This document shows, piece after piece, positions 1 through 34,148 of a stretch of 64,000 nt of DNA (its first letter is position 1; each line of letters begins with the position of its first letter). Position numbers and translations under genes: made by a program. The DNA is from an uncultured Verrucomicrobiota bacterium. Lineage in GTDB: Bacteria > Verrucomicrobiota > Verrucomicrobiia > Limisphaerales > UBA1319. The notes under the pieces were generated by a model. That model had not been told where the DNA came from, searched no databases, and worked only from the letters and a program-made list of their open reading frames with translations. The DNA lies in contig CAYWIM010000006.1 of NCBI GenBank assembly GCA_964458325.1, positions 9,370-73,369 of the forward strand. The letters run 5' to 3'.

Positions 1-163
1 TCTCGGTCAGTTCGCGATACTGGTCCTGGGCCTTCTCATCGACCATGAAATTCTCGATCCGCTGGCGAAGGTTGGCATACCCGGGATGATCGAGGATGGT
101 CTGGCACAATTCCCGGGCTTTGACGATCACCGGGCTTTCTTCGTGTATCAATTGGGTTTCCAT
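1..163 (-). CDS. YlbF/YmcA-family regulator (partial, runs off window start)
   Basis: Manual translation from ATG at 163: METQLIHEESPVIVKARELCQTILDHPGYANLRQRIENFMVDEKAQDQYRELTE..., resembling the helical YlbF family; not in ORF track. Confidence 0.65.
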   Translation of the reverse strand, partial: METQLIHEESPVIVKARELCQTILDHPGYANLRQRIENFMVDEKAQDQYRELTE

Positions 164-443
164 GTTCAATTCTGGTTCTCGCAACGGCGGCCTCGCCCCC
201 CAGGGTCCAGCAACCGCTGGCCATCACTAGACCACACATTGACCCAAGTGGCAACGCCGCCGTGGAGACCGGGCCCCCGCCGCCCCCGGCGCTGTGCGCT
301 TGACATCCGGAGCGCAGCTTGGGCAGTGTGCGGATCGACAAGAGAGAGATTTGCTGTGCAACGCCTTGCGCTCGGCAGAAGCGGGCGGCCCTTCCGGGCG
401 GCAAACGAATAGAACATGAATTCCAAGGTGGAGACCCAGATCG

Positions 444-815
444 ATGGACTGGAACTTCCTGGCCCGGATCGCCCGTGACGAGGTCCGGGCGACGTTGCGA
501 TCGCTCCCGACGGCATTGCGCGACCGTGCCGAGCGGCTGCCGGTGACCCTCGAGCGCCACCCCAGCCGCGATCTTCAGAAGGATGGCATCGATGCCGATA
601 CCCTGGGCCTTTTCGTCGGCGAAGCCTTCCCCGAGGACGGCTGGGGACCTGCCCCCCTGCCTCCTCAGATCCTCCTGTTCCTCGATAATCTCTGGGACTT
701 CGCCGAGGAGGACGAGGAGATCTATCGGGAGGAAATCCGCACCACCCTGCTGCACGAGCTCGGCCATTACCTTGGCCTCGATGAGATCGACCTCGAAGAC
801 CGCGGCCTCGATTGA
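444..815 (+). CDS. Zincin-like metallopeptidase family protein
   Basis: 123 aa, HELGH(Y) HExxH motif, LGLF and IxLF segments typical of minimal zincins. Confidence 0.85.
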   Translation: MDWNFLARIARDEVRATLRSLPTALRDRAERLPVTLERHPSRDLQKDGIDADTLGLFVGEAFPEDGWGPAPLPPQILLFLDNLWDFAEEDEEIYREEIRTTLLHELGHYLGLDEIDLEDRGLD

Positions 816-962
816 CTCCAAAGGCTGGCGGGGGCGCGGCATTCATTCGGATACGGAAGGCGGTTGGCCTCCGGCACGAGATGCGAGCGGGGCGGGGGAT
901 CGATGGGAGGGTGGCCGCCGTTCCGTGATTGAATTTTTGCGGCCAAGCCTTAATCTGCCCCC

Positions 963-1853
963 ATGCGTCACGAGCCTGTCCTGCAGATCGATTTGCCCGG
1001 CCTTCGCAAACTCAAAAGCGGCAAGGTCCGCGAGATATTCGATCTGGGGGACCGTCTTCTGCTGGTGGCGACGGACCGGATCTCCGCGTTCGATTGCATC
1101 ATGCCGAACGGGATTCCGCGCAAGGGCGAGGTCCTCACTCAGATCTCTCATTTCTGGTTTGATCAGATGGAGTCGATCGTGCCCAACCACCGCCTGCAGC
1201 GCGCCACCGATCCCCTGCCGGCCGATATCGAGCCCTTCGCTGCCCAGCTCGCCGGCCGCAGCATGATCGTCCGCAAAGCCCGCCCCCTGCCCGTCGAATG
1301 TGTTGTCCGCGGCTACCTCGCCGGATCCGGCTGGAAAGAATACCGCGCCTATCAGACCGTCTGCGGCATCTCTCTGCCCGCCGGTCTCACCGAATCCGCC
1401 GAGCTTCCCGAGCCGATCTTCACTCCCTCGACCAAGGCCGAGACCGGCCATGACGAGAACATCTCCTTTGACGAGGTCGTCCAGGGAATCGGCCTCGCCC
1501 TGGCCGAGCGGATCCGCGACCTCAGCCTCCGCCTTTACCGCCAGGCCCGCGCCTATGCCCGCCAGCGCGGCATCTTGATCGCTGACACGAAATTCGAGTT
1601 CGGCGAGGCTGAAGGGCAGCTGCTCCTCATCGACGAAGTCCTCACACCGGATTCGTCGCGTTTCTGGCCTGCGGATCAATACCAGCCAGGCCGCAGCCAG
1701 CGCAGCTTCGACAAGCAATTCGTCCGGGACTACCTCGAGACGATCGACTGGAATAAAACTCCGCCCGCCCCCGCTCTCCCCGCCGACGTCGTCCAGAGAA
1801 CTCAGGCCAAATACCTCGAAGCCTTCCAGCGCCTCACCGGCCGCGAGCTCTAA
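963..1853 (+). CDS. purC: Phosphoribosylaminoimidazole-succinocarboxamide synthase
   Basis: [59 protein letters not shown] motifs. Confidence 0.97.
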
Positions 1854-1869
1854 GGATTCAGGATTCTCG

Positions 1870-2796
1870 ATGCATAACCTGGTCGAGGATTTTCTGCAGC
1901 ACATCCGCCATGAGCGCGGCCAATCCATTCAAACCCAAAAAACCTACGCGGCGATTCTCGGTCATTTCGTTGCCTGGGCCGCCGCCCAAGGAGTTGCCGA
2001 TTGGCGCCAGGTCGAGGCCGGGCATCTCCTCGCGTTCCTGAAGAGCGAGCGCGATCGGCGCCCCGCCCGATCCGATCCCGGCTCGACGCGCCGGCTCAGC
2101 CCGGAGACCGTCTACCTGGAAATCGCCGCTCTCCGGGCTTTTTACCGTTTCTGCGAAGGCGAACGCCTGCTGGCCGCCAACCCCGCCGAGCTGCTCACCC
2201 TGCCCCGCCACTGGCTGCATCTCCCCAAGTCGATCGACTATGCAGAGATGGAACGTCTGCTCGCGCCGGTCGCACCCGCCACGCCGGCCACCCTTTGCGA
2301 TCAAGCCGTGCTCGAACTCGCTTACGCCTCCGGCCTCCGCCTCAGCGAACTCTGCCGCCTCCGGCTCGAACAGCTCCATCTGGACGCCGGATTTGTCACC
2401 GTCATTGGAAAAGGCAACAAGGAGCGTGTCGTTCCCATGGGCAGGCCCGCGGTTGTGGCCATCGAGCATTATCTCCAAGTCGCTCGGCCCCAATTAGTTC
2501 GCCCCCACTCGACCGGGCAGGTCTTCCTGAACCTCCGCGGCCGCCCATTCGCACCCGTCACGCTCTGGCTCCGGATCAAGAAACGCGCCCGGCTGGCCGG
2601 CATCCAGCGCAATTTGACTCCTCATATGCTCCGTCACAGTTTTGCGACCCACCTGCTGGACCGGGGCGCCGATCTGCGCGTCATCCAGGAGCTGCTCGGC
2701 CACGCCAGCATCAGCACCACTCAAGTGTATACTCACGTCGCTCCGCAGCGCCTTCGGGATATCCATCGCCGGTTTCACCCGCGAGCCTCCCTTTAA
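1870..2796 (+). CDS. xerD: Tyrosine recombinase XerC/XerD
   Basis: YASGLRLSEL, GKGNKER, HMLRHSFATH, LLGHASISTTQVY catalytic R-K-H-R-H-Y set; housekeeping context; XerC vs XerD not resolvable. Confidence 0.88.
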   Translation: MHNLVEDFLQHIRHERGQSIQTQKTYAAILGHFVAWAAAQGVADWRQVEAGHLLAFLKSERDRRPARSDPGSTRRLSPETVYLEIAALRAFYRFCEGERLLAANPAELLTLPRHWLHLPKSIDYAEMERLLAPVAPATPATLCDQAVLELAYASGLRLSELCRLRLEQLHLDAGFVTVIGKGNKERVVPMGRPAVVAIEHYLQVARPQLVRPHSTGQVFLNLRGRPFAPVTLWLRIKKRARLAGIQRNLTPHMLRHSFATHLLDRGADLRVIQELLGHASISTTQVYTHVAPQRLRDIHRRFHPRASL

Positions 2797-2872
2797 TCGG
2801 GCAACTCTTGCGCCACGGGCCGGCTGCAATTTTCGATTCGCTCCAATCGCATGGACCGCGTATTTTAGCCGC

Positions 2873-5800
2873 ATGTCTGATCCGGGACTGGAACTGACCC
2901 ACACCGCCGATCCGCCGGCAGCGCCGCCGGGACCGGCGTGGCGGCGGTGTGTGGGGATCGATATCGGGGCCGAGACGGTCAAGGTCGTCGATCTGGCCGT
3001 TGCGGACGGCCGCATCGAGTGGCGGCGGCGCGAGATCCGCGAGCACGGCAAGGCGCCCGGCCCTGTTCTCCGGCAAATGCTGGCCGCACTCGATTGGTCG
3101 GGCGTCGCCGCCGCTGCGGCCGTCGGACGGCTCTCCGGCCAGCTGCGCCTGCCCCAGGTCCCCCCCAAGCAGGCGCAAGCGCGCGGTTTTCGCCACCTCC
3201 ACCCTGGGCGCGAAGCCACCGTGGTCGGCATCGGCAGCCACGGATTCTCCGTCCTCGAGCTCCGCGCCAATGGCGTCGAAGTGTTCCGCGAGAACAGCCG
3301 CTGCTCGCAAGGCACCGGGAATTTCCTCCGGCAGCTGGTCGAGCGTTTCTCGCTGACCATCGAGGAGGCCAGCGAGCTGTGCGGCCCGGGCGTGCAGTCC
3401 GCCCCCCTCTCCGGCCGCTGCCCGGTCATCCTGAAAACGGACATGACGCATCTGGCCAACAAGGGCGAAAACCGGGCGGCGATCCTTGCCGGGCTGTTCG
3501 ACGCGGTGTGCGAAAACGTGATGGTCCTCGTCAAGCCCGGCGTCAGCCCGCGCCAGGTGCTCCTGGTCGGCGGCGTCAGCCGGTCGCCCCGAGTCCAGCA
3601 GGTCTTCCGGGACGCGCTCGCGCGCCAGCAGATGGAGCTGCTGCCTTGGGATCCGGATTCAGCCACCTACCTCGAAGCCATGGGCTGCGCGCTCGAGTCC
3701 CTCGAGCTCGCTCAGGAGCCGCCGGCGCTCGAGGATCTCCTGGCTCACTCGAAGCCCCATCACCTCGAACGCGTCGCCAGCCTCGCCAATTCCCTCTCGC
3801 GCGTCCGGCGCATGCCGCTGCCCCCGCCCGCCGATCCCCGGGGCCAAGGCCGCGATCTCATCCTCGGATTCGACCTTGGCAGCACCGGATCCAAGGCCCT
3901 GGCGCTGGACGCCCGCACCCTCGAGCAGGTCTGGACCCATTATCGCAGAACCCTCGGCGACCCTGTCGGCGCCGCCCAGGATCTGCTCCGGCATTTCTGC
4001 CAAAGCCCCGCCGGCGCCGGCCGGGTGCTCGCCATTGGCGTGACCGGCAGCGGCCGCGAGATCGCCGGCTCGCTCATGGCTACCTGCTACGGCCGAGGCG
4101 CCGTCTTCATCCTGAACGAGATCGCTGCCCATGCCACCGGCGCCCTCCACTACGATCCCCGGGTCGATACCATCTTCGAAATCGGCGGCCAGGACGCCAA
4201 GTACATCCGCCTGGCCGAAGGCCGCGTCGTCGACTGCGCGATGAACGAGGCCTGCAGCGCCGGCACCGGCTCCTTTATCGAGGAGCAAGGGCAGAAATTC
4301 GCGGGGATCGAGCATGTGGCCCAGCTCGGCGCCGCCGCGCTCGAAGCCGACTACGGCGTGTCGCTCGGCCAGCATTGCTCCGTCTTCATGGCCGAAGTGA
4401 TCGATGAATCGGTCGCCGCGGGCGTCCCGTCCAGCGCCATCATCGCCGGCCTGTACGACTCGGTGGTCCAGAACTACCTCAACCGCGTCAAGGGCAACCG
4501 ATCGGTGGGCCATGTGATTTTCTGCCAGGGGATGCCATTCTCCGCGGATGCGCTAGCCGCCGCCGTGGCTCGACAGACCGGCGCCCAGGTGATCATCCCG
4601 CCCGATCCGGGTCTCGTCGGTGCCCTGGGCATCACCCTGCTCACCCTTCGGGAGGTCGACTGGAAAGGGCTGAATCCGCTGAATCCAGCCCTCTTCCTCG
4701 ATGCGAAAGTCGAGCAAAAGAACACGTTCATCTGCCAGTCCGCGGTCGGCTGCGGCGGGTCGGGCAACCGCTGCCGCATCGATTGCCTCCGGACCCACGT
4801 CGAAAACGAGCGGCGCACCTTCACCTGGGGCGGCGCCTGCTCCCTCTACGACAAGGGAACCCGCAAACGAAAACTCCCCGATCGCGCCCCGGATCCGTTC
4901 CGCGAACGCGAGGAGCTGGCACGCGCCCTGGCGCCCGTCCGCCGCGACTCCGGCTCGAGCCAGGGACGAATCGCCCTCTCGGACGAGTTCGTCCTCAAAC
5001 AGCTTTATCCGTTCTTCGCCGTGTTCCTCCAGGAGCTGGGCTTCGATCTGGTCCCCCTGCATGGCGCCGACCACGCCGACCTCAAGCGCGGCATTCAGAC
5101 CGCCAATATCCCCTTCTGCGCCCCGATGCAGCTGTTCCACGGCTTGGTCGAGCGGCTCGCCGAAACGGGCGCCGAGCGCCTCTTCCTCCCCATGCTGCGC
5201 CACTTGCCCCGCTCGGCCGGAGAAGGCCATGCCGTCACCTGCCCCATCGTCCAGGCCAGCCCCGACATCCTTAAGTGGGATCTCCGGAATGTCGCTCCCG
5301 AACGAATCGTCAGCCCGGTCGTGGCCATCGGACAATCCGGCCTTTCCTCTCCTGAATTCCAGGAAAGCTGCCGCCAGCTGGCCGCCCAGCTCGGGATCTC
5401 CGGCACCCGGTGGATCGAGGCTCATGCCCGGGCGCTCTCCGTCCAGCTGACTTTCGATCGGAAATGCCTCGAGATCGGCCAGCGCGCCCTCGAGTTTTGC
5501 CGTGATCGGTCGGCGGTGCCCGTTGTGGTCCTGGGGCGCGCCTACACGATCTACAACCCTGTCCTCAACTCGAACGTCCCCGCCATCCTCCGCGAGCAGG
5601 GCGCCATCGGAATCCCCGTCGACTGCTACCCGATCGATGCCGCGGCGCCCGTCTTTCCCGACATGTACTGGGGCTACGGACAGCAGATCCTGCGCGCCGC
5701 CCACCAGATCCGGCGGACCCCCGGCGTCTATAGCCTCTATTGCAGCAACTACTCGTGCGGCCCCGACAGCTTCAACCTCCATTTCTACAGCTATATCATG

Positions 5801-7240
5801 GAGGGCAAACCGTTCTCCATCATCGAGACCGACGGCCATTCCGGCGATGCCGGCACCAAGACCCGCGTCGAGGCTTTCCTCCATTGCGTTGCCGAAGACG
5901 CCCGCGCGTCCGCCGCCCCGCCTGCGCCGCGCGACTTCCACGCGCAGCAATACCAGCCCATCAATATCCGCAACATCCAGCGCGATCGTGACCGAGAGAC
6001 GATTCTGATCCCTTGGATGGGCCCCGGATCCGAAATTGCCGCCGCATGCCTCCGCGGCGCCGGCTTCTCCACCCAGTGCCTGCCGCCCCCGGACAGCGAC
6101 GCCCTGCGGCACGGACGCCGATTCACCTCGGGCAAGGAATGCCTGCCGATGTGCCTCACCCTGGGCTCGCTTCTCCAATACCTCGAGCCCCGCGGCTCCT
6201 CGAACGAGCGCTATGTCTACCTCATGCCCAGCACGTGGGGACCTTGCCGCCTCGGCGTCTACCAGTTGCTCACTCGCATCACGACCGAACGCCTCGGCTG
6301 GTCCGATCGCCTCCGCTTCTGGTCCCCCAAGGACACCGGCTATTTCGAAGGCTTCGCCCCCGGTCTCGAGATGCTCCTCTTTGTCGGCATCGAGACCATC
6401 GACATCCTCACCCAGGGACTGTTCGCCACCCGGCCCGGCTCCGCCGATCCCGAAGCAGTCCAATCCATCTACCGACGCTACTGCCAGGAACTTTATTCTC
6501 ATGTCGAAGCCCAAGCCCGCGGCGACCTCTCCCTGGCTCCGGCTCTGTGGCAGATCGCCTCCCGGCGGTTCTTCGGCCTGGCGGATCTGGTCGAGCGCGC
6601 CGCGGCCGATCTCGTGCCCCTGCAATCCGGAAAACCACGCCCCACCGTCCTCCTCGTCGGCGAAATCTACGTCCGCCTCACCCCCTTCAGCAACGATTTC
6701 GTTATCGAGAAGCTCGAAGCCCGCGGCTTGAGCGTCCGGCTGGCGCCCCTGGGCGAATGGCTCGAATACTGCGATGTCTGCAAGCGCATCGACGGCCTCA
6801 AAACCGGGCTCGGCGGCCGCATCAGCGACTGGGTCCAGGAGCGGGTCCGCCACCACACCTACCACATCATGGGCCGCGCCCTGGGATGGCCCGAGCGCCC
6901 CCGGGTGCCCGACATGATGGCCGACACCGAAGGCTACCTCCGATCCAAACTCCGCGGCGAAGCCGTGCTCACCATCGGCGGCCCCCTCCACGAATGGCGG
7001 CGGGGCGATATCGATGCCATGGTCAGCGTCGGCCCCCTCGAATGCATGCCCAACAAGATCGCCGAGGCCCAGCTATTCCACGTCTCCGAACGCGAAGGGC
7101 TCCCCAGCATCACCCTCTCCTACAACGGCGATCCGATCAGCGACGATATCCTCGATAACTTCGCTTACGAGGTCCAACGGCGCTTCCGCCAGAAACAGTC
7201 CGCCCAGCCCGCCCCGCGCCACGCCTCTGCCCCCCGGTAG
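2873..7240 (+). CDS. Fused double ASKHA activase / DUF2229 / dehydratase-like protein (PlsA/Ger-type architecture)
   Basis: Two BadF/BadG/BcrA/BcrD ATPase domains (GIDIGAETVK..RCSQGTG..GRCPV; GFDLGSTGSK..EIGGQDAK..NEACSAGTGSF), Cys linker CQSAVGCGGSGNRC, then FCAP/TCP/SCGPD and KECLP/GPCR/GEIY/ECMP motifs; start taken at ATG 2873. Confidence 0.85.
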   Translation: MSDPGLELTHTADPPAAPPGPAWRRCVGIDIGAETVKVVDLAVADGRIEWRRREIREHGKAPGPVLRQMLAALDWSGVAAAAAVGRLSGQLRLPQVPPKQAQARGFRHLHPGREATVVGIGSHGFSVLELRANGVEVFRENSRCSQGTGNFLRQLVERFSLTIEEASELCGPGVQSAPLSGRCPVILKTDMTHLANKGENRAAILAGLFDAVCENVMVLVKPGVSPRQVLLVGGVSRSPRVQQVFRDALARQQMELLPWDPDSATYLEAMGCALESLELAQEPPALEDLLAHSKPHHLERVASLANSLSRVRRMPLPPPADPRGQGRDLILGFDLGSTGSKALALDARTLEQVWTHYRRTLGDPVGAAQDLLRHFCQSPAGAGRVLAIGVTGSGREIAGSLMATCYGRGAVFILNEIAAHATGALHYDPRVDTIFEIGGQDAKYIRLAEGRVVDCAMNEACSAGTGSFIEEQGQKFAGIEHVAQLGAAALEADYGVSLGQHCSVFMAEVIDESVAAGVPSSAIIAGLYDSVVQNYLNRVKGNRSVGHVIFCQGMPFSADALAAAVARQTGAQVIIPPDPGLVGALGITLLTLREVDWKGLNPLNPALFLDAKVEQKNTFICQSAVGCGGSGNRCRIDCLRTHVENERRTFTWGGACSLYDKGTRKRKLPDRAPDPFREREELARALAPVRRDSGSSQGRIALSDEFVLKQLYPFFAVFLQELGFDLVPLHGADHADLKRGIQTANIPFCAPMQLFHGLVERLAETGAERLFLPMLRHLPRSAGEGHAVTCPIVQASPDILKWDLRNVAPERIVSPVVAIGQSGLSSPEFQESCRQLAAQLGISGTRWIEAHARALSVQLTFDRKCLEIGQRALEFCRDRSAVPVVVLGRAYTIYNPVLNSNVPAILREQGAIGIPVDCYPIDAAAPVFPDMYWGYGQQILRAAHQIRRTPGVYSLYCSNYSCGPDSFNLHFYSYIMEGKPFSIIETDGHSGDAGTKTRVEAFLHCVAEDARASAAPPAPRDFHAQQYQPINIRNIQRDRDRETILIPWMGPGSEIAAACLRGAGFSTQCLPPPDSDALRHGRRFTSGKECLPMCLTLGSLLQYLEPRGSSNERYVYLMPSTWGPCRLGVYQLLTRITTERLGWSDRLRFWSPKDTGYFEGFAPGLEMLLFVGIETIDILTQGLFATRPGSADPEAVQSIYRRYCQELYSHVEAQARGDLSLAPALWQIASRRFFGLADLVERAAADLVPLQSGKPRPTVLLVGEIYVRLTPFSNDFVIEKLEARGLSVRLAPLGEWLEYCDVCKRIDGLKTGLGGRISDWVQERVRHHTYHIMGRALGWPERPRVPDMMADTEGYLRSKLRGEAVLTIGGPLHEWRRGDIDAMVSVGPLECMPNKIAEAQLFHVSEREGLPSITLSYNGDPISDDILDNFAYEVQRRFRQKQSAQPAPRHASAPR

Positions 7241-7309
7241 GTCGAGATTGAAATCCGCGCCCCGAAACAAGGCGGTGGCGGCCCGTTGCGGCGGTGTGCA
7301 TTCATGCCG

Positions 7310-8236
7310 TCAAGTGAGCCCGGGCCATTTTTGCTTGCCGGCGGCTTCCGCGCGCGCGAATGCGGATTGGAGGGCATCCAAAGCGCGTTGGGGCAGAGGC
7401 CCTCGAGCCGCCGCCTCGAGGTTGCGCCTGGCGTTCGCCGGTTGGGTGGTGCCCACAATCGCAACGTGGACCCCGGGCTGTGAGAGTGTGAACCGAAGCG
7501 CAATCTCGGGCCAATCCCCTTCGCTGGCGAAGCCGAGATCCCCCACGCCCAGATTCATCGCCGCGAACCGCTCGCAATACGGCTTCGCGTAATCCTGGTA
7601 AATTCCCTGAAACTCCTCAGCCGGACGCCAGGCCGCGTTGGCAATCGGCCTCTTGGCGATCACCCCAAGCCCACGCTCCCGGGCAATCGGCACCACCGCG
7701 GCCAAATTTGCCTGATCGCAAATGTTGACCGATGTCTCAATCACCGAAATCTCAGGGAGACGCGCCGCGAAGGCGGCCTCCTCGTTGTCTCCCGAGTAGC
7801 CCGCGAATCGGATCTTACCCGCGTCCCGGGCCCGCATCAGCGCCCCCACCGCCTCGCCGCGCTGCAGGACCTCCATCCCGCACGAGTGCAGCAGCACCAC
7901 ATCGATCCGATCGGTCCGGAGCCTTCGCAGGGAGCGGTCGATGGTCGCCGCAATCGCCTGGGATGACCACGCCGGTCCTTCGAGATCGGCGAATTGCTGC
8001 CCGCACTTGCTCACCAGGACGCATTCTCCCCGCCGGCTGCCGAGGGCTTTCCCGACTGCCTCTTCGGAGCCCTGATAGGACGCTGCCGTGTCAATGAAGT
8101 TGATCCCGGCATCGAGCATGATCTGGACGATGATCTCGACCTGCTTCTGCTCGGTTTCCAGGAAGCCGATAGGCGCGGCTCCCCATCCCAAGGGGGAGAC
8201 CGAAAGGCCTGTGACGCCGAATGTTCTCGTTTTCAT
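7310..8236 (-). CDS. Aldo/keto reductase
   Basis: VSPLGWG, FIDTAASY, SKCG, SLRRLRTDRIDVVLLH, GKIRFAG motifs. Confidence 0.93.
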   Translation of the reverse strand: MKTRTFGVTGLSVSPLGWGAAPIGFLETEQKQVEIIVQIMLDAGINFIDTAASYQGSEEAVGKALGSRRGECVLVSKCGQQFADLEGPAWSSQAIAATIDRSLRRLRTDRIDVVLLHSCGMEVLQRGEAVGALMRARDAGKIRFAGYSGDNEEAAFAARLPEISVIETSVNICDQANLAAVVPIARERGLGVIAKRPIANAAWRPAEEFQGIYQDYAKPYCERFAAMNLGVGDLGFASEGDWPEIALRFTLSQPGVHVAIVGTTQPANARRNLEAAARGPLPQRALDALQSAFARAEAAGKQKWPGLT

Positions 8237-8260
8237 AAAGGCTTGGTTGTTGAAAATCCG

Positions 8261-10426
8261 CTACGGGCCAACCCAGATCAGCCGATAGAACATCCGCGAT
8301 TCGGTGGCGGAGATCGGATAAGGGCTGCTGGCGTCCGGAACGTCGCCATAGGTCCCGTTCACATCCAGAGCCGACTGCAGCCTGAACGCCGGATTGGACC
8401 ATTCCAGTTGGATCCCGCCGCCTGACGACGAGATGATCAGCGGGATCGGATCCGGCGTCGAGGCCAGGACCTCCACCCGGAACCGGGTGAACTCGAATGG
8501 GCTGCCCGCCGTCTCGAGGTTGCCCGCCCGGAACCCGATGCAGTCGAATCGCGGGTAGGCATAGGTGTTGTCCGTGACCGAATGCGACCAGTTGGTGCCG
8601 CCACCCGACACCGCCGTGGTCACTTGCACGGAGGTGAGCGATTTGCGGTCGATGGTGAACTCGAGGGTGTACGGCGTGTCGTTCTGAAATGCGGGTTCGC
8701 CGTTCAGGTTGGCGGGGCCGCCCCCCAGCCCCAGGTAGTTGCCCGTCGTGCCCATCAGGTCGCCCGAGCCCAGATTGTTCCGCGCATAGAGCGAAAACGG
8801 ATTGCCCGAAAACTGGAGGCCGAAGTTCAAGGCCGCCATGTAGCCCCGCACGTTCTGCCCATTGCCGGTGCTCCCCGAGCCGAATCCGTCGTTCAAGACG
8901 CGCGTCCCGCCGTCGGCATAGTCGAAGAAGCCGATGCGGACGCTGCCGCCGCTGCTGGTGATGTTGCTGGCCTTGAACTCGAGCGTGCCCTTGAGCGCAT
9001 GCCCGACGCCCAGATGCACCGGCAGATTCGCGGCCGAATCGTCCGTGAAATAGCCCAGCCATAGAACGGACGAGCCCGATGCGACGGTGCCCATCATCGA
9101 GAGGCCGCTCGAGGCATCGAGCGAGCTGGCGGTGCTGGCGAACCAGACGGAGTTGCTCACATCGTAGGGCAGGTTGTTGTAGAGGTAATCCTGGAACAGG
9201 TCGTCGACCACCAGGCCAGCGGGCGTCGCGGTTGCCGGCGTCACCGCAAGGGTGGCGGCCGACGAGGTTGCCGAAGAGCCGCCGTTGCAGCCGACGGTGA
9301 CGATGGCGCGATATTGGTTGCCGTGATCCGCCGGCGTCGTCGGGCGTGTCCAGTAGGTCGGTGTCGTCCCACCCACCCCATCGGCAACGTTTTCCCACGT
9401 CGCCCCACTGTCGGTCGAGACCTGCCATTGGTAGGCGGGAGAGGATCCGCCGGCGATGACCGAGACGATGGCGCCGATTCCTTCGTTGACCGTCTGGTCG
9501 GCGGGGTGTGTCGAGATGCTGGCCGCCACGCACAGCGCCTGCGTCGAGGTCGCTTCCGCCCAGGTCGTGGCGATCCGGAACTCGTCGAGGAACATGCTGG
9601 CCACGACCTCAGTGCCCACATGGTAGATGAGAAACGAGGAGAGCGAAGGGACGTCCGCGCCCGCCGCCAGAGTGAGCGCCGGCGCCGGCACATCGCCCTC
9701 GGCCGCATTCAGCGATCCGGGGTCCACCCACAAGGCGACTTCGTCGTCATCCACGTCCGGATTGAACTGGTAGCGCAGCACGACCAGGTGCGTGCCGGGC
9801 GCCAAGGGCGTCGTCGAGTCCGCCCCGATAGCGGCATTCGAGCTTTTGCTGATGGCCAGGGTGTTGCCGGGGGTGAGCCAGATGCCCGCCATCGAGCTGC
9901 TGCCCGGGCTGTTGTTGATCACGGGATTGCTGTAATAGTCGAGCTTGGCAAATAGCCGGCTGTCCGTGCCGGAAGGCGCCTGCTGGACGTCCATCAGGAA
10001 TGAGACGTAAGCCCGGCCGCCGCTGATGGCGGGAAACAGGATGCCTCGAGTCCGATTCGCGGTGGTGTTTGCGGTCCGAATATAGAGGCCCAGGTTCGGG
10101 TTGGGATCCTGGTAGAGGCTGGGGTAGGAAAGCGCGGCGGCGCCGCCGACCACCACCGTGCTCCCACCGCCTGCGCTGTTCCCGATGGACCAGATCGTGG
10201 CGGTGTCGCCGTTCCCGAGCCGGCGCGCCCGGTAGGCGCTGCCTCCCGCGGGCACCTCGACGGTTTCATCGGAGGAGTTGGTGTAGGAGCTGGGGAAAGG
10301 CTCGTAGATCGGCAGCGGCGTCTGAGCCTCCGCTCCCGCCCAGCCCAGGGTCGCCAGGGCCACAACGGCTGCCGCGCCGCGGATCGATCGGATGTTCAAA
10401 CACCTAACAGCATTTTGGTGGTTCAT
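8261..10426 (-). CDS. Secreted Ig-domain protein with C-terminal FYR tail
   Basis: Signal peptide ending AEA-Q, Ig I-set-like segment (HPADQTVNEG..YQWQ..YRAIV), tail LQSALDV..Y..MFYRL; RBS GAAGGA before ATG 10426. Confidence 0.75.
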   Translation of the reverse strand: MNHQNAVRCLNIRSIRGAAAVVALATLGWAGAEAQTPLPIYEPFPSSYTNSSDETVEVPAGGSAYRARRLGNGDTATIWSIGNSAGGGSTVVVGGAAALSYPSLYQDPNPNLGLYIRTANTTANRTRGILFPAISGGRAYVSFLMDVQQAPSGTDSRLFAKLDYYSNPVINNSPGSSSMAGIWLTPGNTLAISKSSNAAIGADSTTPLAPGTHLVVLRYQFNPDVDDDEVALWVDPGSLNAAEGDVPAPALTLAAGADVPSLSSFLIYHVGTEVVASMFLDEFRIATTWAEATSTQALCVAASISTHPADQTVNEGIGAIVSVIAGGSSPAYQWQVSTDSGATWENVADGVGGTTPTYWTRPTTPADHGNQYRAIVTVGCNGGSSATSSAATLAVTPATATPAGLVVDDLFQDYLYNNLPYDVSNSVWFASTASSLDASSGLSMMGTVASGSSVLWLGYFTDDSAANLPVHLGVGHALKGTLEFKASNITSSGGSVRIGFFDYADGGTRVLNDGFGSGSTGNGQNVRGYMAALNFGLQFSGNPFSLYARNNLGSGDLMGTTGNYLGLGGGPANLNGEPAFQNDTPYTLEFTIDRKSLTSVQVTTAVSGGGTNWSHSVTDNTYAYPRFDCIGFRAGNLETAGSPFEFTRFRVEVLASTPDPIPLIISSSGGGIQLEWSNPAFRLQSALDVNGTYGDVPDASSPYPISATESRMFYRLIWVGP

Positions 10427-10499
10427 ATAGCATTCCTTCATTTCAGATCGGATTCAATCGTCCCTGGCCGCGGGCGGGCCGCGCCCGCCCGGGGCGCAT

Positions 10500-11366
10500 T
10501 CACGGCGCCCACATGTTCATCGCCTTCCGATAGCTGATCCCGTTGTTCCCGATGTCCTTCCACAGGGCGGGATCGAAGGCCTGGGGGATCCGCCGCGCGC
10601 TTTGAAAGACAACGTGCCCGTCGCCGAACAGCGCGTTCAGTCCAGCAATGCTGTTGTCCCGGTGCGGCGCGGCAGCCGGGCTGTCGAGATTGTGCACCAG
10701 ATCTACCGCCATGCTCTTGGCTTGGTTGATCTGAGTGAGCTTGAACGGCGCCAGATAGCTCTTGCCCGAGGCCGACGGCGATGTGTCCGGCTTCACCTCC
10801 GGCAGGAACATGCCCGGCCCCATGTTCTGCAGGATCTTGGACTGCGGAAAATAGCTGTAGCCGCTCCGGACATTGTCGTCCGCCTGTTGCTCGGCGCCAA
10901 AGGGCCACGCGCCGTTGACGGTGTAGTAGGCATACGTCCAGCCGCCGCCATGCTTTTTACCGCTGGGACAGTAGCAGACCTGGGGGTTCGGTATATTCTT
11001 GGTCGCCCAGGCCAGCCCGAGATTATGCGGGCCTTCGGTGATCTGGCGGGCGGAGGCGTTCACTCGCATCATCTCGTAGGGATACCACGAGTTGGCGTCG
11101 CGGAACTTCACCGTTGGCAGGACATCGTTGTTGTCCTGGGCATACATCAGGAGGCCCAGGCCGACCTGCTTGAGATTGCTCGAGCAGTTGATCCGCAAGG
11201 CGCGCTCTTTGGCCTTCGAAAGCGCCGGCAACAACATCGATGCCAGAATGGCAACGATGGCGATCACCACCAGCAGCTCGATCAGCGTGAACCCCCGGCA
11301 GGCTCGCGCCGCCCTTGCCCCCGGCCCGGCCGCGTGCACGAACCGCATCGGCCGATTGCTCATCAT
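10500..11366 (-). CDS. Prepilin-type N-terminal cleavage/methylation (pseudopilin) protein with C-terminal H..DG motif
   Basis: [46 protein letters not shown]; start uncertain. Confidence 0.9.
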
Positions 11367-11442
11367 ACGATGTCCTGGAAATCGCGTGCCCCCATTTTGC
11401 CCAATCCCGCCGGCCATTGCTACCGTAAATCGAAAAAAAAGA

Positions 11443-11573
11443 CAATGGGGTCGCATCAATAGTTGACATATGACGCGTGGGAAGTGTTCGCAGAGGCATG
11501 GGTTAAAAATCCGGAGCGAAGCCGTTTTGCTACACAGCTCAGGCGCGTATTGTCAACTATTTAGACCCCATTG
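11443..11573. repeat. Long-spaced inverted repeat upstream of pseudopilin gene
   Basis: caatggggtc-gcatc-aatagttgaca (11443-11468) versus reverse complement of 11551-11573, caatggggtc-ta-aatagttgaca. Confidence 0.6.
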
Positions 11574-11603
11574 CCTTATGTCTGCGGAGTCGTCGGGAGG
11601 ATT

Positions 11604-12671
11604 TCATCTGCGGCTCCGCCACGCCATGTAATCAAGGTAGAGGCGCGTCGAGCCGGGGTGGCCGGCGAACGCGCTCGTGCCCGGGCGGTTCATCAAGCCC
11701 TGGTACTGGTAGATCAGGATGGTGTCGACGTGGGGTGAGACGGCTTCGAGCTGGGCTTGCACCCGATCCCACGGGGCCGGAATGAGGGGCGTGGTCTGCC
11801 GGTTGGGCGGGCCTTCCCAGGCGAACACCTCGACATCCGCCCACAGCGCGCGTTGCGGGACGCGGTCGTGCGCACGCCGCAGCGTCGCAAACGCCCGCTC
11901 GCTCTCGGCCGGGGTCATCCGCAGACAGCCGACCTCGTCCTGGTAGGCGATGATATCCACGTCCAGCCGTTCGAGCTGGAGGAGGAACCGGTCGTCGCAC
12001 ACGGCGCGGCTTGTCCCGTAGGGTGCCGTGAGGATCCTGGCTTTGGGAGTGAGGCGGCGGGCTTCGCGGCTGCTCGCGTTGACGTATGCAATGAAGGGGT
12101 CCGAGAAGTGCGGGGAGAGGCAGGCCTCGTTGGGCCAATACCAGCCGTGAAAGCTCGAATGATGGCTGTAGCGCCGGGCGATCTCCTCCATCATCTGAAA
12201 ACGCTTGCGAGCCCGATCTGGATTGACCAGCGCATCGGCATCCCATTCGGCGTGCCAATCGCTGCTGATGAAGAACTTGACCCGGCATCGGTCGGCGGCG
12301 GCGAGCATCGCCTCGATGGGATCCGGGCAGGCCATCTCGAGCTTGGGCAGCAGCGCCGTGTCATAGAACGCTTTGCCGCCTTTGGCGATGGCCAGCAGCA
12401 CGAGGTATTTCATCCCCATGTCCGCCATGTCCCGAATTGCGGCTTGCCATTGGCCGGCCGTGAATCGAAGGCAGGCATCGTTCCAATACACGTGCCGCCG
12501 GTCATCCCACCAGACGCTGATCCAGCTGCCGCGGATTGGCTGAACCCTTGCGTGGCGGGGATCCTGCCATGCGCAAGACGCGGCAAACGGGGCGGCAAGA
12601 GCCCCCGAGCCGAAGGCCTTCAGGAAGCGCCTGCGCGAGGCGGCATCGGTTGGCGGCAAGCAGGATTTCAC
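11604..12671 (-). CDS. DUF4434-like glycoside-hydrolase-fold protein, Tat (lipo)protein
   Basis: SRRRFLK twin-arginine, FAASC lipobox-like, GWYWPNE, DIIAYQDEVG, LWADVEVF motifs; GTG start assumed. Confidence 0.72.
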   Translation of the reverse strand: MKSCLPPTDAASRRRFLKAFGSGALAAPFAASCAWQDPRHARVQPIRGSWISVWWDDRRHVYWNDACLRFTAGQWQAAIRDMADMGMKYLVLLAIAKGGKAFYDTALLPKLEMACPDPIEAMLAAADRCRVKFFISSDWHAEWDADALVNPDRARKRFQMMEEIARRYSHHSSFHGWYWPNEACLSPHFSDPFIAYVNASSREARRLTPKARILTAPYGTSRAVCDDRFLLQLERLDVDIIAYQDEVGCLRMTPAESERAFATLRRAHDRVPQRALWADVEVFAWEGPPNRQTTPLIPAPWDRVQAQLEAVSPHVDTILIYQYQGLMNRPGTSAFAGHPGSTRLYLDYMAWRSRR

Positions 12672-12944
12672 GAGCAGTCTCTTTCTTGATGGCGCGCCGC
12701 GGCCTTGCCGCCAGCGCAACCGTGTTGGACACGGGAGCTCTTTCGGGGCATTCTGTTTCCGTTGCAGCCCGTCCCCGCGATGTTATTCTCGCTGAAAAAC
12801 CAAATGCAAATCGAATTGCAGGCGCCCCATGGGAGCGTTGCCGGTTGGGGTGGACGGCAGGAATACCGTGACGGTGTCGCGCGCGAATGCGGCCTCGGTC
12901 TTCCGGCTGGTCAACGGATGGCAGATCGGCGATCTTGACCTCAA

Positions 12945-13154
12945 ATGCCCTCGCAAAACTCGCTGGACCGGGCCATGGCCCGGGTCTGCATCCATTGTCT
13001 CGTCTGCCGGCGGGCCCGGCATCGCCAACGCGGCATGGCCTTCCGGTTGGTGCAGCGAATCGAGACCAAGCTCTGCCCGTTCTGCCTGGCCTACGAACGA
13101 GTCTACGGACGAAAGGCGCACGAGGCCCCTCCCGGCGCCGAGCCGGCTCCTTGA
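12945..13154 (+). CDS. Small Cys-rich hypothetical protein
   Basis: 69 aa, CxxCxxC...CPFC..YERVYG pattern. Confidence 0.55.
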   Translation: MPSQNSLDRAMARVCIHCLVCRRARHRQRGMAFRLVQRIETKLCPFCLAYERVYGRKAHEAPPGAEPAP

Positions 13155-13191
13155 GATCTCGGAACCAGAAGCGGCGGCTTCGCGGATCTGC

Positions 13192-15225
13192 CTACGGCAG
13201 AAGCCGGCCCCGATGGAACTCGCGCGTCAATCCGGAGGCCGCCTCCTGGATCAGGAGCAAGGTGCCGGTCCCATCGGTGAATTCGAGCTCGAGCGAGGGG
13301 AGCCAGGCCGATAGATCCGGGCTTTGTTCGAGCAGGAATTTCTGGTCCGGCTTGCCGCCGAATAGAAACACATGGTGCGCCTCGGTGCGGGCGTAGCGGA
13401 CGAACTCGATCGGGGTCAGGTCGGGCACGACCTGGGCGCGCAGGATCATCCCCTGGACTCCGACCGCGACGAGCTGGCCGCCGGCGGCCGCCGCGCCGAA
13501 CAGCGATTTGCGGGTGAGCGTGCCGGTGCTGGACCAATCGGCCAGGTTGGTGCTGGTGAGGACCGCGCCGCCGGTGCCGACCACAAACCACGTGCCCTCG
13601 ACGAACGCGGCGTCCGTGAGCCACTCGGTGGTGCCGCTGGATCGGGCAGTCCAGTTCGTGGCGTCGGGGCTGGTCCAGAGCGCGCCGTTTTCGCCGACGA
13701 CCAGCAGCACGTCATGGAGGCGGCGCACCTGCCAGAGCCAATCGGTTGTCGGCAGAGCGCGCGATGTCCAGTTGGTCCCGTCGGGGCTTGTCAGCATCGC
13801 GCCGCGATCCCCCACGGCCACCAGCCCGGCCGGGCACGTTTCCATCGACGAAAGAAAGCCGGCGGCCGGCGCGGCCTGCCCGCTCCATTGGACACCGTCG
13901 CGGCTGGTGAGAATCGTTCCGTTCGCGCCGGACGCCAGGAACAGGCCGCCGAAGGCGGTGCAGCCTTGGAGATCGTTGGGGGTGGGCCGCGGCTCGACGG
14001 CCTCCCAGGTCACGCCGTTGGTGCTCCGGATGATCGCCCCGGCATTGCCCACCGCGAAGAGAAGGTTCGTCGTGCCGCCCACCCCCAAGAACACGGTGTT
14101 GGTCACCGAATCCGGGACGATGTCCATGTCCCAATCCACCCCGTTGTCGCTGGTCATCACGGTGCCGCGATCTCCGGCGGCGATGTAGTAGTGCGGGGTG
14201 CGGCGCAAGGCCCAAAGCCATGTGCGAGGCGAATTGCTGGGAACATAGTAGACGAACGGGCTGGTCTCGTTGGTGCGATAGCCTTGGACCCAAAGCCCCG
14301 TCTCCCCGCCAAGCCACACGGAGGCGCCATCCCAGAGCGCGCTGTAATAGCTCCAGACGGGAGGCGGATAGGGCTTGGCGCTGTCCAGTTCGTCCACCCA
14401 GGCGGCGCCGTCCTTTCTGCGCACTTCGGCCTCGCCCGCCAGCCAGGTGGCATGGCTGGCGCCCGCGGCGGCGGAGAGATGATTGGTGGCGCCCGCGGCC
14501 TGCGGCGACCACGAGTTGCCGTTGGCGCTGGTCAGGACCAGGCCGCCGTCGCCGGCAGCCCAGTAGCGGTCCTCGAGCCAGGCGACGCGGTTGAGATGCC
14601 CGGTGACGCCGCTGTTGCGCTTGGTCCACGTGGCGCCGGTCGAGCTGCTCATGATGAACCCGCTCTCTCCCACCGCCACGAAGCCGGACGATCCCCAGGC
14701 AACGCTGCGAAGCCAGGCCGTGTATCCCGTGTTCTTCCGGGTCCAGGCGACGGCGTTGGTGCTGGTATAGACCGCGCCGTTGTCGCCCACGGCCACGACC
14801 AGGCTCGCGGATGCCGCCACGCTCTCGAGCCAGTCGGCCGTGCCGAGGTCGTTCAGGAAGAACTCCGACGGGTCGTCGGAAAACAGGATGGTCCCGCGCT
14901 CGCCGCAGATCACGATGCGCCCGCCCAGAAACGTCACGCCGCGCAGGGATCGGTCGGTGTGGCTGTCGCGGGGCGTCCATGAATCGAGGTCGGTGCTGGT
15001 GAAGATCTGGCCCCGCTCGCCCACCTGGACGGCCAGGCCGCCGGCCCAGGCGATGTCGACGATGTTCGCCCCGTGCGGCGCCGGGTTGGACCATCGCCAC
15101 GACAATGGGTATGCGGCGGAGGAAAGCGCCCAGGCCGCGCTGGCTGCCAGCACGAGCGCGCGGGCCGCCTGGCATTGCGCGACACGGGGGATCAAGCGTT
15201 TCATATGGTGTTTTGGGAATGGCAT
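13192..15225 (-). CDS. Secreted BNR/Asp-box beta-propeller protein with C-terminal tail
   Basis: Signal peptide, many TSxDGxxW/TSTNxxxW repeats, tail LEQSPDLSAW..EFHR; start trimmed from the 881-aa ORF to ATG 15225 (or 15204). Confidence 0.8.
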   Translation of the reverse strand: MPFPKHHMKRLIPRVAQCQAARALVLAASAAWALSSAAYPLSWRWSNPAPHGANIVDIAWAGGLAVQVGERGQIFTSTDLDSWTPRDSHTDRSLRGVTFLGGRIVICGERGTILFSDDPSEFFLNDLGTADWLESVAASASLVVAVGDNGAVYTSTNAVAWTRKNTGYTAWLRSVAWGSSGFVAVGESGFIMSSSTGATWTKRNSGVTGHLNRVAWLEDRYWAAGDGGLVLTSANGNSWSPQAAGATNHLSAAAGASHATWLAGEAEVRRKDGAAWVDELDSAKPYPPPVWSYYSALWDGASVWLGGETGLWVQGYRTNETSPFVYYVPSNSPRTWLWALRRTPHYYIAAGDRGTVMTSDNGVDWDMDIVPDSVTNTVFLGVGGTTNLLFAVGNAGAIIRSTNGVTWEAVEPRPTPNDLQGCTAFGGLFLASGANGTILTSRDGVQWSGQAAPAAGFLSSMETCPAGLVAVGDRGAMLTSPDGTNWTSRALPTTDWLWQVRRLHDVLLVVGENGALWTSPDATNWTARSSGTTEWLTDAAFVEGTWFVVGTGGAVLTSTNLADWSSTGTLTRKSLFGAAAAGGQLVAVGVQGMILRAQVVPDLTPIEFVRYARTEAHHVFLFGGKPDQKFLLEQSPDLSAWLPSLELEFTDGTGTLLLIQEAASGLTREFHRGRLLP

Positions 15226-25004: not shown

Positions 25005-26423
25005 TCAACCTATAGCACAGGATCCCGGGATCGCGCCGGAGGCAGGATCCGCTTGGGGGGGGCGTTTCATCCATCGCCAGATCGTGGTGCGGTCTACCCC
25101 CAGCCGCCGGGCGGCCTCGGCGCGGTTCTGGCGGCACTCCGTGAGCAGCCGTTCCAGTTCTTCGCGGGTGGGTGGCTCGACCGAGGATTTCCGTGAAATA
25201 GGCTCGAGCAGCGCGCTCTCCTTCGGATCGGACTTGCGGCACAGCTGTTCCCGGAGATGCGTCAAGCGGATCTCCACCGGGAGGTCGAACAAGCCGATCT
25301 CTGTGCCCGTGCAGGTGACAAAGGCGTGTTCGATGGCGTTTTCCAACTCCCGCACGTTGCCCGGCCAGCAGAAGTCCATCAGAATGCGGCGGACATCCGC
25401 GGACAGCGCCTGGATTGTCTTGCCGGTCTGGCGGTTGAAAATCTCCATGAAATGCTGGGCCAGCAAGAGAATATCGGTGCCGCGCTCGCGCAAGGGAGGC
25501 AGGTGGATCGGAAAGACGTTCAGGCGGTAGAACAAGTCGGCCCGAAACCGCCCCGCCTCGACCAACCCGTGCAGATCCCGGTGCGTGGCGGTGATGATCC
25601 GGACATCCGCGCGGCGGGTTTGGTTCTCTCCGAGCCGCTCGAATTCGCGGTGCTGGACGACTCGCAGCAGCTTGACTTGCATGAGCGGGCTCAAGTCGCC
25701 GATCTCGTCGAGCATCAAGGTGCCGCGATGCGCCATTTCGAATCGCCCCGGCTTGTCTTTGGCAGCGCCCGTGAATGCGCCTTTGGCGTGCCCGAACAGC
25801 TCGCTCTCGAGCAGAGTCTCCGGCAAGGCGGCGCAATTGAGTTTGACCATGGGGCCGCGGGAGCGGCGGCTCCTTTCGTGGATCTCTTCCGCCACCAGCT
25901 CCTTGCCCGTGCCGGTCTCCCCAACAATCAAAATGGTCGAGTCGGACTCGGCGGCCAGCCGGATGCGATCACGCACCTCCTCCATCGCCGCGCTCTTGCC
26001 CACCAGCTTGCCGGCCGCTGCTTTTTCCGCGGAATGCGCTTGCAGCCGCGCCAGCCGGCTCTCGAGCGCTTTCAAGGGGCGCAAGTCGCTGAAAGTCAGA
26101 ACGCTGCCCATGAGGCATCCGTCATCGCCGACGAGAGGAGAGGTTGCTTTCAAGACCGGCACGCGGCCGCCATCGCACCGTTCGATGCGGCACTCCTCCA
26201 AACGCGGGATCGTCAATGCCAGGCCGATGGGCGCCTTCGAAGAACCGTAGACGCGATGGCAGTCAGCATGGAGCAAACCAATGTCATGACCCGTGACCTC
26301 GATGGCCCGATAACCCGTGAGGATTTCCATGGCCTGATTCCATGCTTGAATGACCGAATGGCGGTCGACGACCACCAGGCCGTGCGGCAGGCTTTCGATG
26401 ATGGTCTGCCAATTCAAGTTCAT
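25005..26423 (-). CDS. PAS-domain sigma54 activator
   Basis: PAS N-terminus, GETGTGKE, ESELFGHAKGAFTGA, WPGNVREL, HTH. Confidence 0.93.
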   Translation of the reverse strand: MNLNWQTIIESLPHGLVVVDRHSVIQAWNQAMEILTGYRAIEVTGHDIGLLHADCHRVYGSSKAPIGLALTIPRLEECRIERCDGGRVPVLKATSPLVGDDGCLMGSVLTFSDLRPLKALESRLARLQAHSAEKAAAGKLVGKSAAMEEVRDRIRLAAESDSTILIVGETGTGKELVAEEIHERSRRSRGPMVKLNCAALPETLLESELFGHAKGAFTGAAKDKPGRFEMAHRGTLMLDEIGDLSPLMQVKLLRVVQHREFERLGENQTRRADVRIITATHRDLHGLVEAGRFRADLFYRLNVFPIHLPPLRERGTDILLLAQHFMEIFNRQTGKTIQALSADVRRILMDFCWPGNVRELENAIEHAFVTCTGTEIGLFDLPVEIRLTHLREQLCRKSDPKESALLEPISRKSSVEPPTREELERLLTECRQNRAEAARRLGVDRTTIWRWMKRPPQADPASGAIPGSCAIG

Positions 26424-26511
26424 CGATCGCCATCAAGCCTACACGGAGATCCGGCGTTCGTCGAGTGGGCCGGGCTTGCTGTTTCCAGCCTGCGCGAAGG
26501 CAGATAACCGC

Positions 26512-26546
26512 GCGTTGCAGGCAACGCTGCATGCAACGGTGCAACC
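26512..26546. promoter_or_regulatory. TGCA/GCAAC-rich putative enhancer
   Basis: GCGTTGC-AG-GCAACGC inverted repeat followed by TGCATGCAAC and TGCAACC, about 140-170 bp upstream of sigma54 site. Confidence 0.4.
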
Positions 26547-26682
26547 GGGCAGAGCGCCGTGAACCCTCGAGCGCACAACCGGGCAGACAGGTTGCGCGCT
26601 CCTGTTTTCGGCAGGCATTTTCCACGATAATCGACGTATTTCACTCTCTCCGCCAACCGCGCCCCCGATGTGATCCCAAGGT

Positions 26683-26697
26683 TGGCATGGCACTTGC
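26683..26697 (+). promoter_or_regulatory. sigma54 -24/-12 promoter of trx-hdr operon
   Basis: TGGCAT-GGCAC-TTGC, 14 nt before ATG 26712. Confidence 0.78.
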
Positions 26698-26711
26698 CTA
26701 TCGAGATTGCG

Positions 26712-27092
26712 ATGAACCGAAGCAGTGAGTCAGAAACCCTTCACGTGGTTGAACTCGGCCCCGCGGAGTTGGATGCCTTCATCCGGGTTGGTGTTGTGCT
26801 GGTCGATTTCTGGGCGCCGTGGTGCGGCCCATGTCGCATGCAGGCGCCGGTGCTCGAGCAGGCAGCGATCGCCCTGGCGCAACGGGCCCGGGTGGGCAAG
26901 GTCAATGTGGACGAGCATCCCCAGATCGCCCAGCGGTATCGGATCGCCGGGATTCCTACCTTGCTGCTTTTCAAGGAGGGCCGCCTGGTTCGCCAGCTTG
27001 TCGGGGTCCAATCTGCCTCCGTTCTGATCTCCGCTCTCGAATCCCTGGTCGAGTCAACGCCGAATGAGTCAGTCAACCCATCCCAACCATGA
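26712..27092 (+). CDS. trxA: Thioredoxin
   Basis: [20 protein letters not shown] motifs. Confidence 0.93.
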
Positions 27093-27340
27093 CACAGAAC
27101 CTGAACGAACTCGTGGCCGCCAAGATCGCCGATGCGCGCGGCAGCGCCTGCCCGGGGCCGCTCCTGGAAGCCAAGAAAGCCATCGGCGGCGTGCCGGTGG
27201 GGCAAATCGTGGAAGTGCAATCCAACGATCCCGGCTCGCGCAACGATCTTCCGGCCTGGGCCCAGCGGGTTGGCCACGAATATCTCGGCTGCCTGGAGGC
27301 GGACGGATACGACCGCCATTTTGTGCGCCGCAAGAAGTGA
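27089..27340 (+). CDS. tusA: TusA/SirA-family sulfurtransferase
   Basis: 83 aa, [10 protein letters not shown] motif, NDPGS. Confidence 0.92.
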
Positions 27341-27352
27341 TCGAGTGATGGG

Positions 27353-27832: not shown

Positions 27833-27836
27833 CCGT

Positions 27837-31355: not shown

Positions 31356-31366
31356 TCCATCCTGCC

Positions 31367-32539: not shown

Positions 32540-32582
32540 GTCACCAGATCCCAAAGCACTCTGTTTATCTAACCAACCTCTT

Positions 32583-32957: not shown

Positions 32958-33013
32958 ACGTGCGCCGCAGAATGGCGGCCAGCGCAAGGACCTGAACAAC
33001 TAACCAACACACC

Positions 33014-33370: not shown

Positions 33371-33439
33371 CCTATCCAACCATCTTCCCGGAACGAACCG
33401 CTGTCCAGAATGGATTGCGGCTCGTATGAAAAGGAGCGC

Positions 33440-34084: not shown

Positions 34085-34148
34085 ACGCCTGCGAAATGCC
34101 GCTGCAGAACGCCAGCCGCCGCTGGGGGGATCTCGGACGACATCAGTG

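Follow-up and report, generated by a model that had tools for sequence, protein, structure and literature searches.

A 64,000-nucleotide stretch of contig CAYWIM010000006.1 from an uncultured Verrucomicrobiota bacterium (the window, hereafter) carries, at 2873-7240 on the forward strand, a gene for a fused protein of the PlsA/PlsR-Ger family. The product is probably a self-contained, oxygen-sensitive, ATP-driven Fe-S reductase that converts esters to ethers on membrane lipids, and a capacity of the organism to make ether lipids is plausible on sequence grounds. The gene was delineated by open reading frame (ORF) calling and translation, Pfam and NCBIfam matches, and homologs. It begins with ATG, spans 4368 bp up to a stop codon ending at 7240, and encodes 1455 aa. 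Its GC content at third codon positions (GC3) of 0.83 is in line with genuine genes of the window, and its start is conserved: the 94%-identical homolog at locus L001 aligns over residues 1-1455. We document here its domain architecture, conserved cysteines, predicted folds and family homology; the new elements are a distinct multi-phylum clade, a diverged ATP motif in the first activase domain, and an internal duplication with aligned Cys triads.

Domain architecture and conserved cysteines

The initial annotation described two ASKHA activase domains, a Cys linker, DUF2229 motifs and a dehydratase-like C-terminus in one 1455-aa chain, and Pfam, NCBIfam, the family alignment, hhalign and Foldseek confirmed each of these elements, with E-values well outside what chance would yield. 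Pfam BcrAD_BadFG (PF01869) matches twice, with the best stretch at residues 331-589 (E 9.6e-36) and a first copy at residues ~27-274. Activase domain 1 (residues ~27-274; window 2951..3694, +) coincides with a TIGR02261 stretch (27-274) and has profile matches to MbdP and DCCP-R. Activase domain 2 (residues ~329-594; 3857..4654, +) is defined by PF01869, by TIGR00241 ('acyl-CoA dehydratase activase'; residues 329-590, 165 bits against an NCBIfam cut-off of 125), and by PDB entries 4eht and 1hux. Searched against the PDB, the family profile matched the activators HadI, HgdC and MbdQ/MbdP at E 1e-42 to 1e-62, and also DCCP-R. The C-terminal half gave no match in this sequence-profile search, leaving solved relatives for the N-terminal half only, and its relationships were therefore sought by fold comparison.

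Reductase/dehydratase-like module 1 (residues ~698-1010; 4964..5902, +) contains DUF2229 (PF09989), which scores 124 bits over residues 700-917 (E 8.8e-36; cut-off 29.4) and is followed by a single sub-threshold piece of ~50 residues of HGD-D (PF06050; residues ~955-1003, E 0.012). A protein search with a short DUF2229 query returned fragments only. Module 2, the PlsR equivalent (residues ~1042-1440; 5996..7192, +), lies within the last 445 aa, which have zero Pfam matches even at E<=10. Alignment with hhalign revealed homology between residues 1040-1455 and the DUF2229 half (probability 98.3%, E 2.5e-14) and showed that the cysteines of both halves pair up (C749/C1090, C790/C1125 and C962/C1391). 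By this alignment, the two reductase modules are read as an internal duplication, with module 2 a diverged copy of the DUF2229 half.

AlphaFold2 models of residues 1030-1455 and 600-1455 have predicted local distance difference test (pLDDT) scores of 93.9 and 84.9, respectively. Foldseek comparison of both models with the PDB gave a probability of 1.0 only for HadBC, the (R)-2-hydroxyisocaproyl-CoA dehydratase, for the double-cubane cluster protein DCCP, and for BzdNO and MbdON (template modelling score, TM, about 0.45-0.54), with the next matches at <=0.5. Both C-terminal modules are thus predicted to adopt the fold of the 2-hydroxyacyl-CoA dehydratase/benzoyl-CoA reductase (HAD/BCR) and DCCP proteins. 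The activases of these systems (HadBC + HadI, HgdAB + HgdC, BzdNOPQ, MbdONPQ and DCCP/DCCP-R) are homologous by sequence to those of the window protein, and the logic of ATP-driven, low-potential electron transfer is common to both. The known systems are built from individual subunits whose substrates are CoA thioesters or small molecules, whereas in the window protein all parts are joined in one chain, together with DUF2229 and a Cys4 linker.

When 46 diverse members of the family were aligned, among them those of Listeria, Collinsella and Haliovirga, 13 cysteines proved invariant, all of which are present in the window protein. Four belong to the activases (C144/C183 in domain 1 and C461/C502 in domain 2), and six form one triad per module (C749/C790/C962, with a CGP motif, in module 1; C1090/C1125/C1391 in module 2). 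The other three, C621, C634 and C656, lie in the Cys-rich linker (residues 619-658; 4727..4846, +), where every clade has a fourth cysteine at variable spacing, at C627 in the window clade and near 630 elsewhere. The linker is modelled as beta strands, rich in beta-hairpins, with low pLDDT, and is probably a Cys4 metal or Fe-S site. Drawing on the HAD/BCR family for the cluster assignment, the cysteine pattern would fit a [4Fe-4S] cluster bridging the activases, a linker site of the Cys4 type and, in each module, a cluster held by three cysteines.

The two activases differ in their phosphate-1 motif. In ASKHA-1 it reads D-I-G-A-E-T throughout the window clade (residues 27-38, window 2951-2986), in place of the canonical D-x-G-S-T/S of most other sampled family members, while ASKHA-2 of the window protein retains a canonical D-L-G-S-T-G-S-K. 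Of the two ATP sites, one may have degenerated.

Two relatives by fold or sequence were rejected as identities of the protein. A bona fide 2-hydroxyacyl-CoA dehydratase (HgdABC/HadIBC) is inconsistent with the single fused chain, the HGD-D match that stays below threshold, the lack of any C-terminal PDB sequence match and the neighbouring genes (purC, xerC/D and aldo-keto reductase). For class I benzoyl-CoA reductase (BcrABCD/BzdNOPQ), scores fall far below the NCBIfam equivalog cut-offs of the respective models (TIGR02261, 83 bits against 313; TIGR02259, 76 against 578; TIGR03192, 46 against 380).

Place in the PlsA/PlsR-Ger family

Membership of the family is well supported by sequence comparison: colinearity with Listeria, alignment with a split Fusobacterium locus, gene size, and colinearity of the C-terminal part across the family. 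The Listeria, Collinsella and Fusobacterium proteins used here come from chromosomal records mislabelled in a plasmid collection. The Listeria monocytogenes PlsA-type protein WP_014600632.1 (1475 aa), the sole family homolog in a 2.9-Mb Listeria record, is colinear with window residues 28-1397 at 24% identity (BLASTP, E 6e-85) and comes from a species for which plasmalogen synthesis has been reported. Taken alone, the last 815 residues align colinearly with ~1400-aa proteins that fall into 591 clusters at 50% identity (E<=1e-30). At 4368 bp, the gene lies within the range of verified single-gene plsA genes (4248-4920 bp; PMC12838417).

Single-gene PlsA proteins (E. faecalis EF1327 and those of L. 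cremoris, B. longum and Listeria) resemble the window protein in being one chain of ~1400-1640 aa with two BcrAD_BadFG domains, a Cys linker, DUF2229, a second HAD-like module and the 13 invariant cysteines. The split form is represented by Fusobacterium animalis locus L085, where a 975-aa activase-DUF2229 gene is followed by a 404-aa gene named '2-hydroxyacyl-CoA dehydratase'. This is the plsA-plsR layout, and the locus serves as a stand-in for C. perfringens PlsA + PlsR (CPE1194/CPE1195). Window residues 27-1008 correspond to the 975-aa gene and residues 1044-1396 to the 404-aa gene (BLASTP, E 1e-14), so that the window protein is the fused counterpart, at ~21-22% identity to the stand-in. 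The domain order that the initial annotation had equated with fused PlsA and with split PlsA + PlsR is thus real.

Beyond the L001 homolog, the closest relatives are full-length proteins at 52-62% identity. In Verrucomicrobiota they occur in many metagenome-assembled genomes (MAGs) of Opitutaceae, Pedosphaera/Limisphaerales and Akkermansiaceae; in Acidobacteriota, in Terracidiphilus, Granulicella, Geothrix isolates and Thermoanaerobaculia; and elsewhere in Myxococcota (Anaeromyxobacter, Kofleriaceae) and deltaproteobacterial MAGs. Relatives are named only 'CoA activase' or 'acyl-CoA dehydratase activase-related protein', as the initial annotation had anticipated. Five MAGs labelled Bifidobacteriaceae or Bifidobacterium (L016, L026, L039, L041 and L069) also carry homologs, 57-60% identical to the window protein and far closer to it than is the Collinsella anchor from Actinomycetota; these are third-party assemblies, and their bin labels look doubtful.

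In a neighbour-joining tree, the window group forms its own clade with 100/100 bootstrap support, and Listeria, Collinsella, Fusobacterium and Haliovirga form a second 100/100 clade. L001 and L014 are excluded from this bootstrap tree, as their tips in a first tree were antisense ORFs. The Listeria-type clade is the most distant sampled part from the window protein, at 21-22% identity compared with 28-35% for other representatives. Given the separate clades and this identity, the window protein is not, by these comparisons, an ortholog of the Listeria-type plasmalogen synthases. It further differs from them in linker Cys spacing and in the ASKHA-1 motif, which is GAET in the window protein and GST in PlsA.

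Substrate and product

What follows on cofactors, on the lipid acted upon and on the ether formed is inferred. The two fused ASKHA domains would act as an intramolecular pseudo-dimer holding one bridging [4Fe-4S] cluster on C144, C183, C461 and C502. ATP hydrolysis would lower the potential of this cluster and drive low-potential electrons, possibly through the Cys4 linker, into the two fused HAD/BCR-like modules, each of which would bind a cluster through three cysteines (C749/C790/C962 in one, C1090/C1125/C1391 in the other). At these sites, reduction and dehydration of the carbonyl of the sn-1 acyl ester in a membrane glycerophospholipid would yield a 1-O-alk-1'-enyl (vinyl) ether, which Ger-type enzymes would further reduce to a saturated 1-O-alkyl ether. 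Between vinyl and alkyl product we lean slightly to the alkyl ether, because the clade relatives are akin to Edaphobacter aggregans (Acidobacteriaceae) and Holophaga foetida, for both of which Ger homologs and alkyl ethers have been reported (PMC13159169; supplement to bioRxiv 10.1101/2022.04.21.487849).

A Ger-type glycerol ester reductase making saturated alkyl ethers, which in some lineages may feed membrane-spanning ether lipids resembling glycerol dialkyl glycerol tetraethers of the branched type (brGDGTs), is a real but tentative possibility. The two-activase plus DUF2229 architecture is that described for Ger homologs (PMC13159169; also a sponge preprint), the clade-mates lie in Acidobacteriaceae, Geothrix, Myxococcota and deltaproteobacterial MAGs, and a B12-radical SAM gene stands beside the homolog in L008, L019 and L021. 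Near homologs occur in Acidobacteriaceae and Holophagae-related genomes; a search of proteins that started from the homolog of Geothrix campi yielded no named Holophaga foetida homolog, only Geothrix, Anaeromyxobacter and MAG names. The Ger proteins of T. maritima (Tmari_0479) and D. alkenivorans (SHJ90043), compared by published description only, have in common with the window protein a core in which PF09989 comes after two PF01869 domains, and activity only under anoxia is expected for both Ger and the window protein. Published screens against T. maritima Ger apply thresholds of E<=1e-50 with >=30% coverage, or of E<=1e-30 with >30% identity. However, the small extra PF09989/PF06050 pieces (D/H sub-domains) reported for Ger (BBDHDDH, BBDHDHDH) were undetected in the window protein apart from the sub-threshold HGD-D piece, and the surroundings of the gene in the window include neither a Mss/Tes-like nor a B12-radical SAM gene. 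PlsA and Ger are, moreover, held to be indistinguishable from primary sequence, which would preclude such an assignment (PMC13274423, PMC11868695).

A plasmalogen synthase proper, equivalent to fused PlsA and stopping at the 1-alk-1'-enyl ether, is somewhat unlikely. Domain order, length and cysteines match verified single-gene PlsA, and the proposed Ger route may itself run via a plasmalogen intermediate (PMC8788747). The window protein is nevertheless remote from the Listeria-type PlsA clade in the phylogeny, and the phyla of its clade relatives have reported alkyl ethers, not plasmalogens. The window gene also lacks the upstream TetR-type regulator reported for E. faecalis (EF1326-EF1327), whereas a 1593-aa Collinsella homolog has a TetR-like gene directly upstream. 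A published correlation associates two activase domains with producers of alkyl ethers (PMC13274423), yet verified fused PlsA also has two.

The same architecture and ATP-driven Fe-S chemistry could instead serve a substrate other than a glycerolipid, such as another ester, a thioester or a hydroxyacyl compound, as a paralogous function in the DUF2229 superfamily. We consider this unlikely. It would accord with the separation of the window clade from Listeria-type PlsA at 21-22% identity, the gene context devoid of lipid genes in the window, the unmatched last 445 aa in Pfam, the CoA thioester or small-molecule substrates of the fold relatives, and the occurrence in some Bacillota of several PlsA-like paralogs of unclear role (PMC13274423). 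On the other side, all 13 invariant cysteines and end-to-end colinearity with PlsA-type proteins are retained, CoA-transferase and fermentation genes are absent nearby in the window, and some relatives have lipid-related neighbours. We also know of no protein with two activases and DUF2229 that has a demonstrated non-lipid role. That the window clade, with its GAET motif and its own linker spacing, constitutes a distinct subfamily which forms ether bonds at low oxygen in bacteria of soil, peat and wastewater is very doubtful.

Against an ester-to-ether reductase of membrane lipids, several points have to be set. The window clade is robustly separate and only 21-24% identical to the Listeria-type PlsA clade, its ASKHA-1 phosphate-1 motif is non-canonical, and the flanks of the gene in the window hold no lipid genes. 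To our knowledge, no member of the clade has been examined experimentally. For anchors, the comparisons and the tree relied on the Listeria, Collinsella, Fusobacterium and Haliovirga proteins, in place of C. perfringens PlsA/PlsR, E. faecalis PlsA, and the T. maritima and D. alkenivorans Ger proteins. Two of the four Ger-like homologs tested in E. coli, those of Ca. Kuenenia and T. geofontis, yielded no ethers (supplement to bioRxiv 10.1101/2022.04.21.487849), and a homolog is not always accompanied by ether lipids in cultures (PMC13159169). The ether-lipid interpretation of the initial annotation therefore holds at the level of the family, through colinearity; its extension to an organism that makes ether lipids is not established, in view of the separate clade, the 21-22% identity and the two ether-negative homologs.

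Gene surroundings, source organism and significance

Upstream of the PlsA/Ger-type gene, purC (963-1853, +) precedes a xerC/xerD-type recombinase gene (1870-2796, +) that ends 77 bp before it; downstream, an aldo-keto reductase gene (7310-8236, -) is convergent with it. A promoter and terminator scan gave nothing informative, and a search for contigs encoding the window protein gave no match. Neighbourhood clustering of 80 genome loci with full-length homologs revealed no conserved operon, as expected of a one-gene pathway, and the most frequent neighbour is a divergent LysR regulator (~9 loci). In three verrucomicrobial loci, a gene for a B12-binding radical SAM protein with DUF4070 adjoins the homolog on the same strand (L008:6032-7747; L019:13228-14790; L021:5990-7867 and 12615-13757). 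Four loci carry, ~4 kb downstream of the homolog, a fusion of MFS, PlsC-type acyltransferase and AMP-binding domains that is LplT-Aas-like (L008:16172-18400; L010:16088-19531; L019:16749-20357; L027:14367-15692). These neighbours hint at a lipid-remodelling context in the relatives; the window contains no homolog of either gene.

A verrucomicrobial source, as initially proposed, is supported by synteny of window positions 1-11406 with L001, from the MAG Verrucomicrobia bacterium RA.bin147, at ~92% nucleotide identity. A nearby N_methyl + DUF1559 gene (10500-11459, -) is consistent with the Planctomycetes-Verrucomicrobia-Chlamydiae (PVC) group. At the 5' end of this gene (window 11201-11600), contig depth reaches 146x against ~9x around it (DNA run X1), many loose contig ends fall at 11256-11295, and the L001 synteny also stops at 11406; the region encodes the conserved prepilin-type N-terminus of the multi-copy DUF1559 family.

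DNA of the gene is present in metagenomes of wastewater, bioreactors, sludge and anaerobic digesters. In two runs from anaerobic digesters (X25 and X26), metatranscriptome contigs, ~92-93% identical, cover parts of it (window 2889-7138), and a close relative is possibly transcribing the gene in digesters; these contigs may include DNA, and neighbouring genes are covered too, a point to be counted with those weighed above.

Farther along the window, positions 25005-44826 hold an island of Fe-S/flavin redox genes of the anaerobe type, which would suit a low-oxygen lifestyle. It comprises a sigma-54 activator with a PAS domain (25005-26423, -), two oxidoreductases with FAD/NAD and ferredoxin domains that are read as HdrA-like (27750-29177 and 29174-31060), a 4Fe-4S dicluster protein (31241-32539), a DsrE-like protein (32487-32957), two proteins with a Nitro_FeMo-Co domain (34690-35424 and 36778-38166, the latter fused to CbiA/MinD and Fer4), a DUF4405 protein (40629-41585), a radical SAM protein (41660-42658) and a 1-Cys peroxiredoxin (42753-43487). 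Between 16273 and 24584, Pfam matches none of four large ORFs (558, 543, 672 and 369 aa), whose GC3 of 0.65-0.69 is below the ~0.8 of their neighbours; they may be lineage-specific, acquired, or called in a wrong frame by the naive caller. The protein of 1167 aa encoded at 45029-48532 (-) combines Laminin_G_3 (concanavalin-like) with Ig-like domains and is probably secreted or located at the surface.

For the PVC group, and for Verrucomicrobia by name, Ger homologs were already listed in the supplement to the 2022 Ger preprint (bioRxiv 10.1101/2022.04.21.487849) and in the main Ger paper, and with both the family and its verrucomicrobial occurrence published, the advance is incremental. Our literature search turned up no account of a verrucomicrobial enzyme having been tested, nor any of ether lipids derived from PlsA/Ger in Verrucomicrobia or of ether lipids in cultured Verrucomicrobiota. 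The analysis corrects the misleading annotation 'CoA activase' and points to cultured members of the clade (Geothrix and Opitutaceae strains) as test organisms. If active, the enzyme would provide an oxygen-independent route to ether-linked membrane lipids in Verrucomicrobiota, which are abundant in soil, freshwater and wastewater. This bears on which organisms produce non-isoprenoid alkyl glycerol ethers and brGDGT-type biomarkers at low oxygen, and on how common breaches of the 'lipid divide' are. Were the clade indeed a distinct ether-forming subfamily, Verrucomicrobiota would be an unrecognised source of alkyl and branched ethers, including precursors of brGDGT-type palaeoclimate biomarkers.

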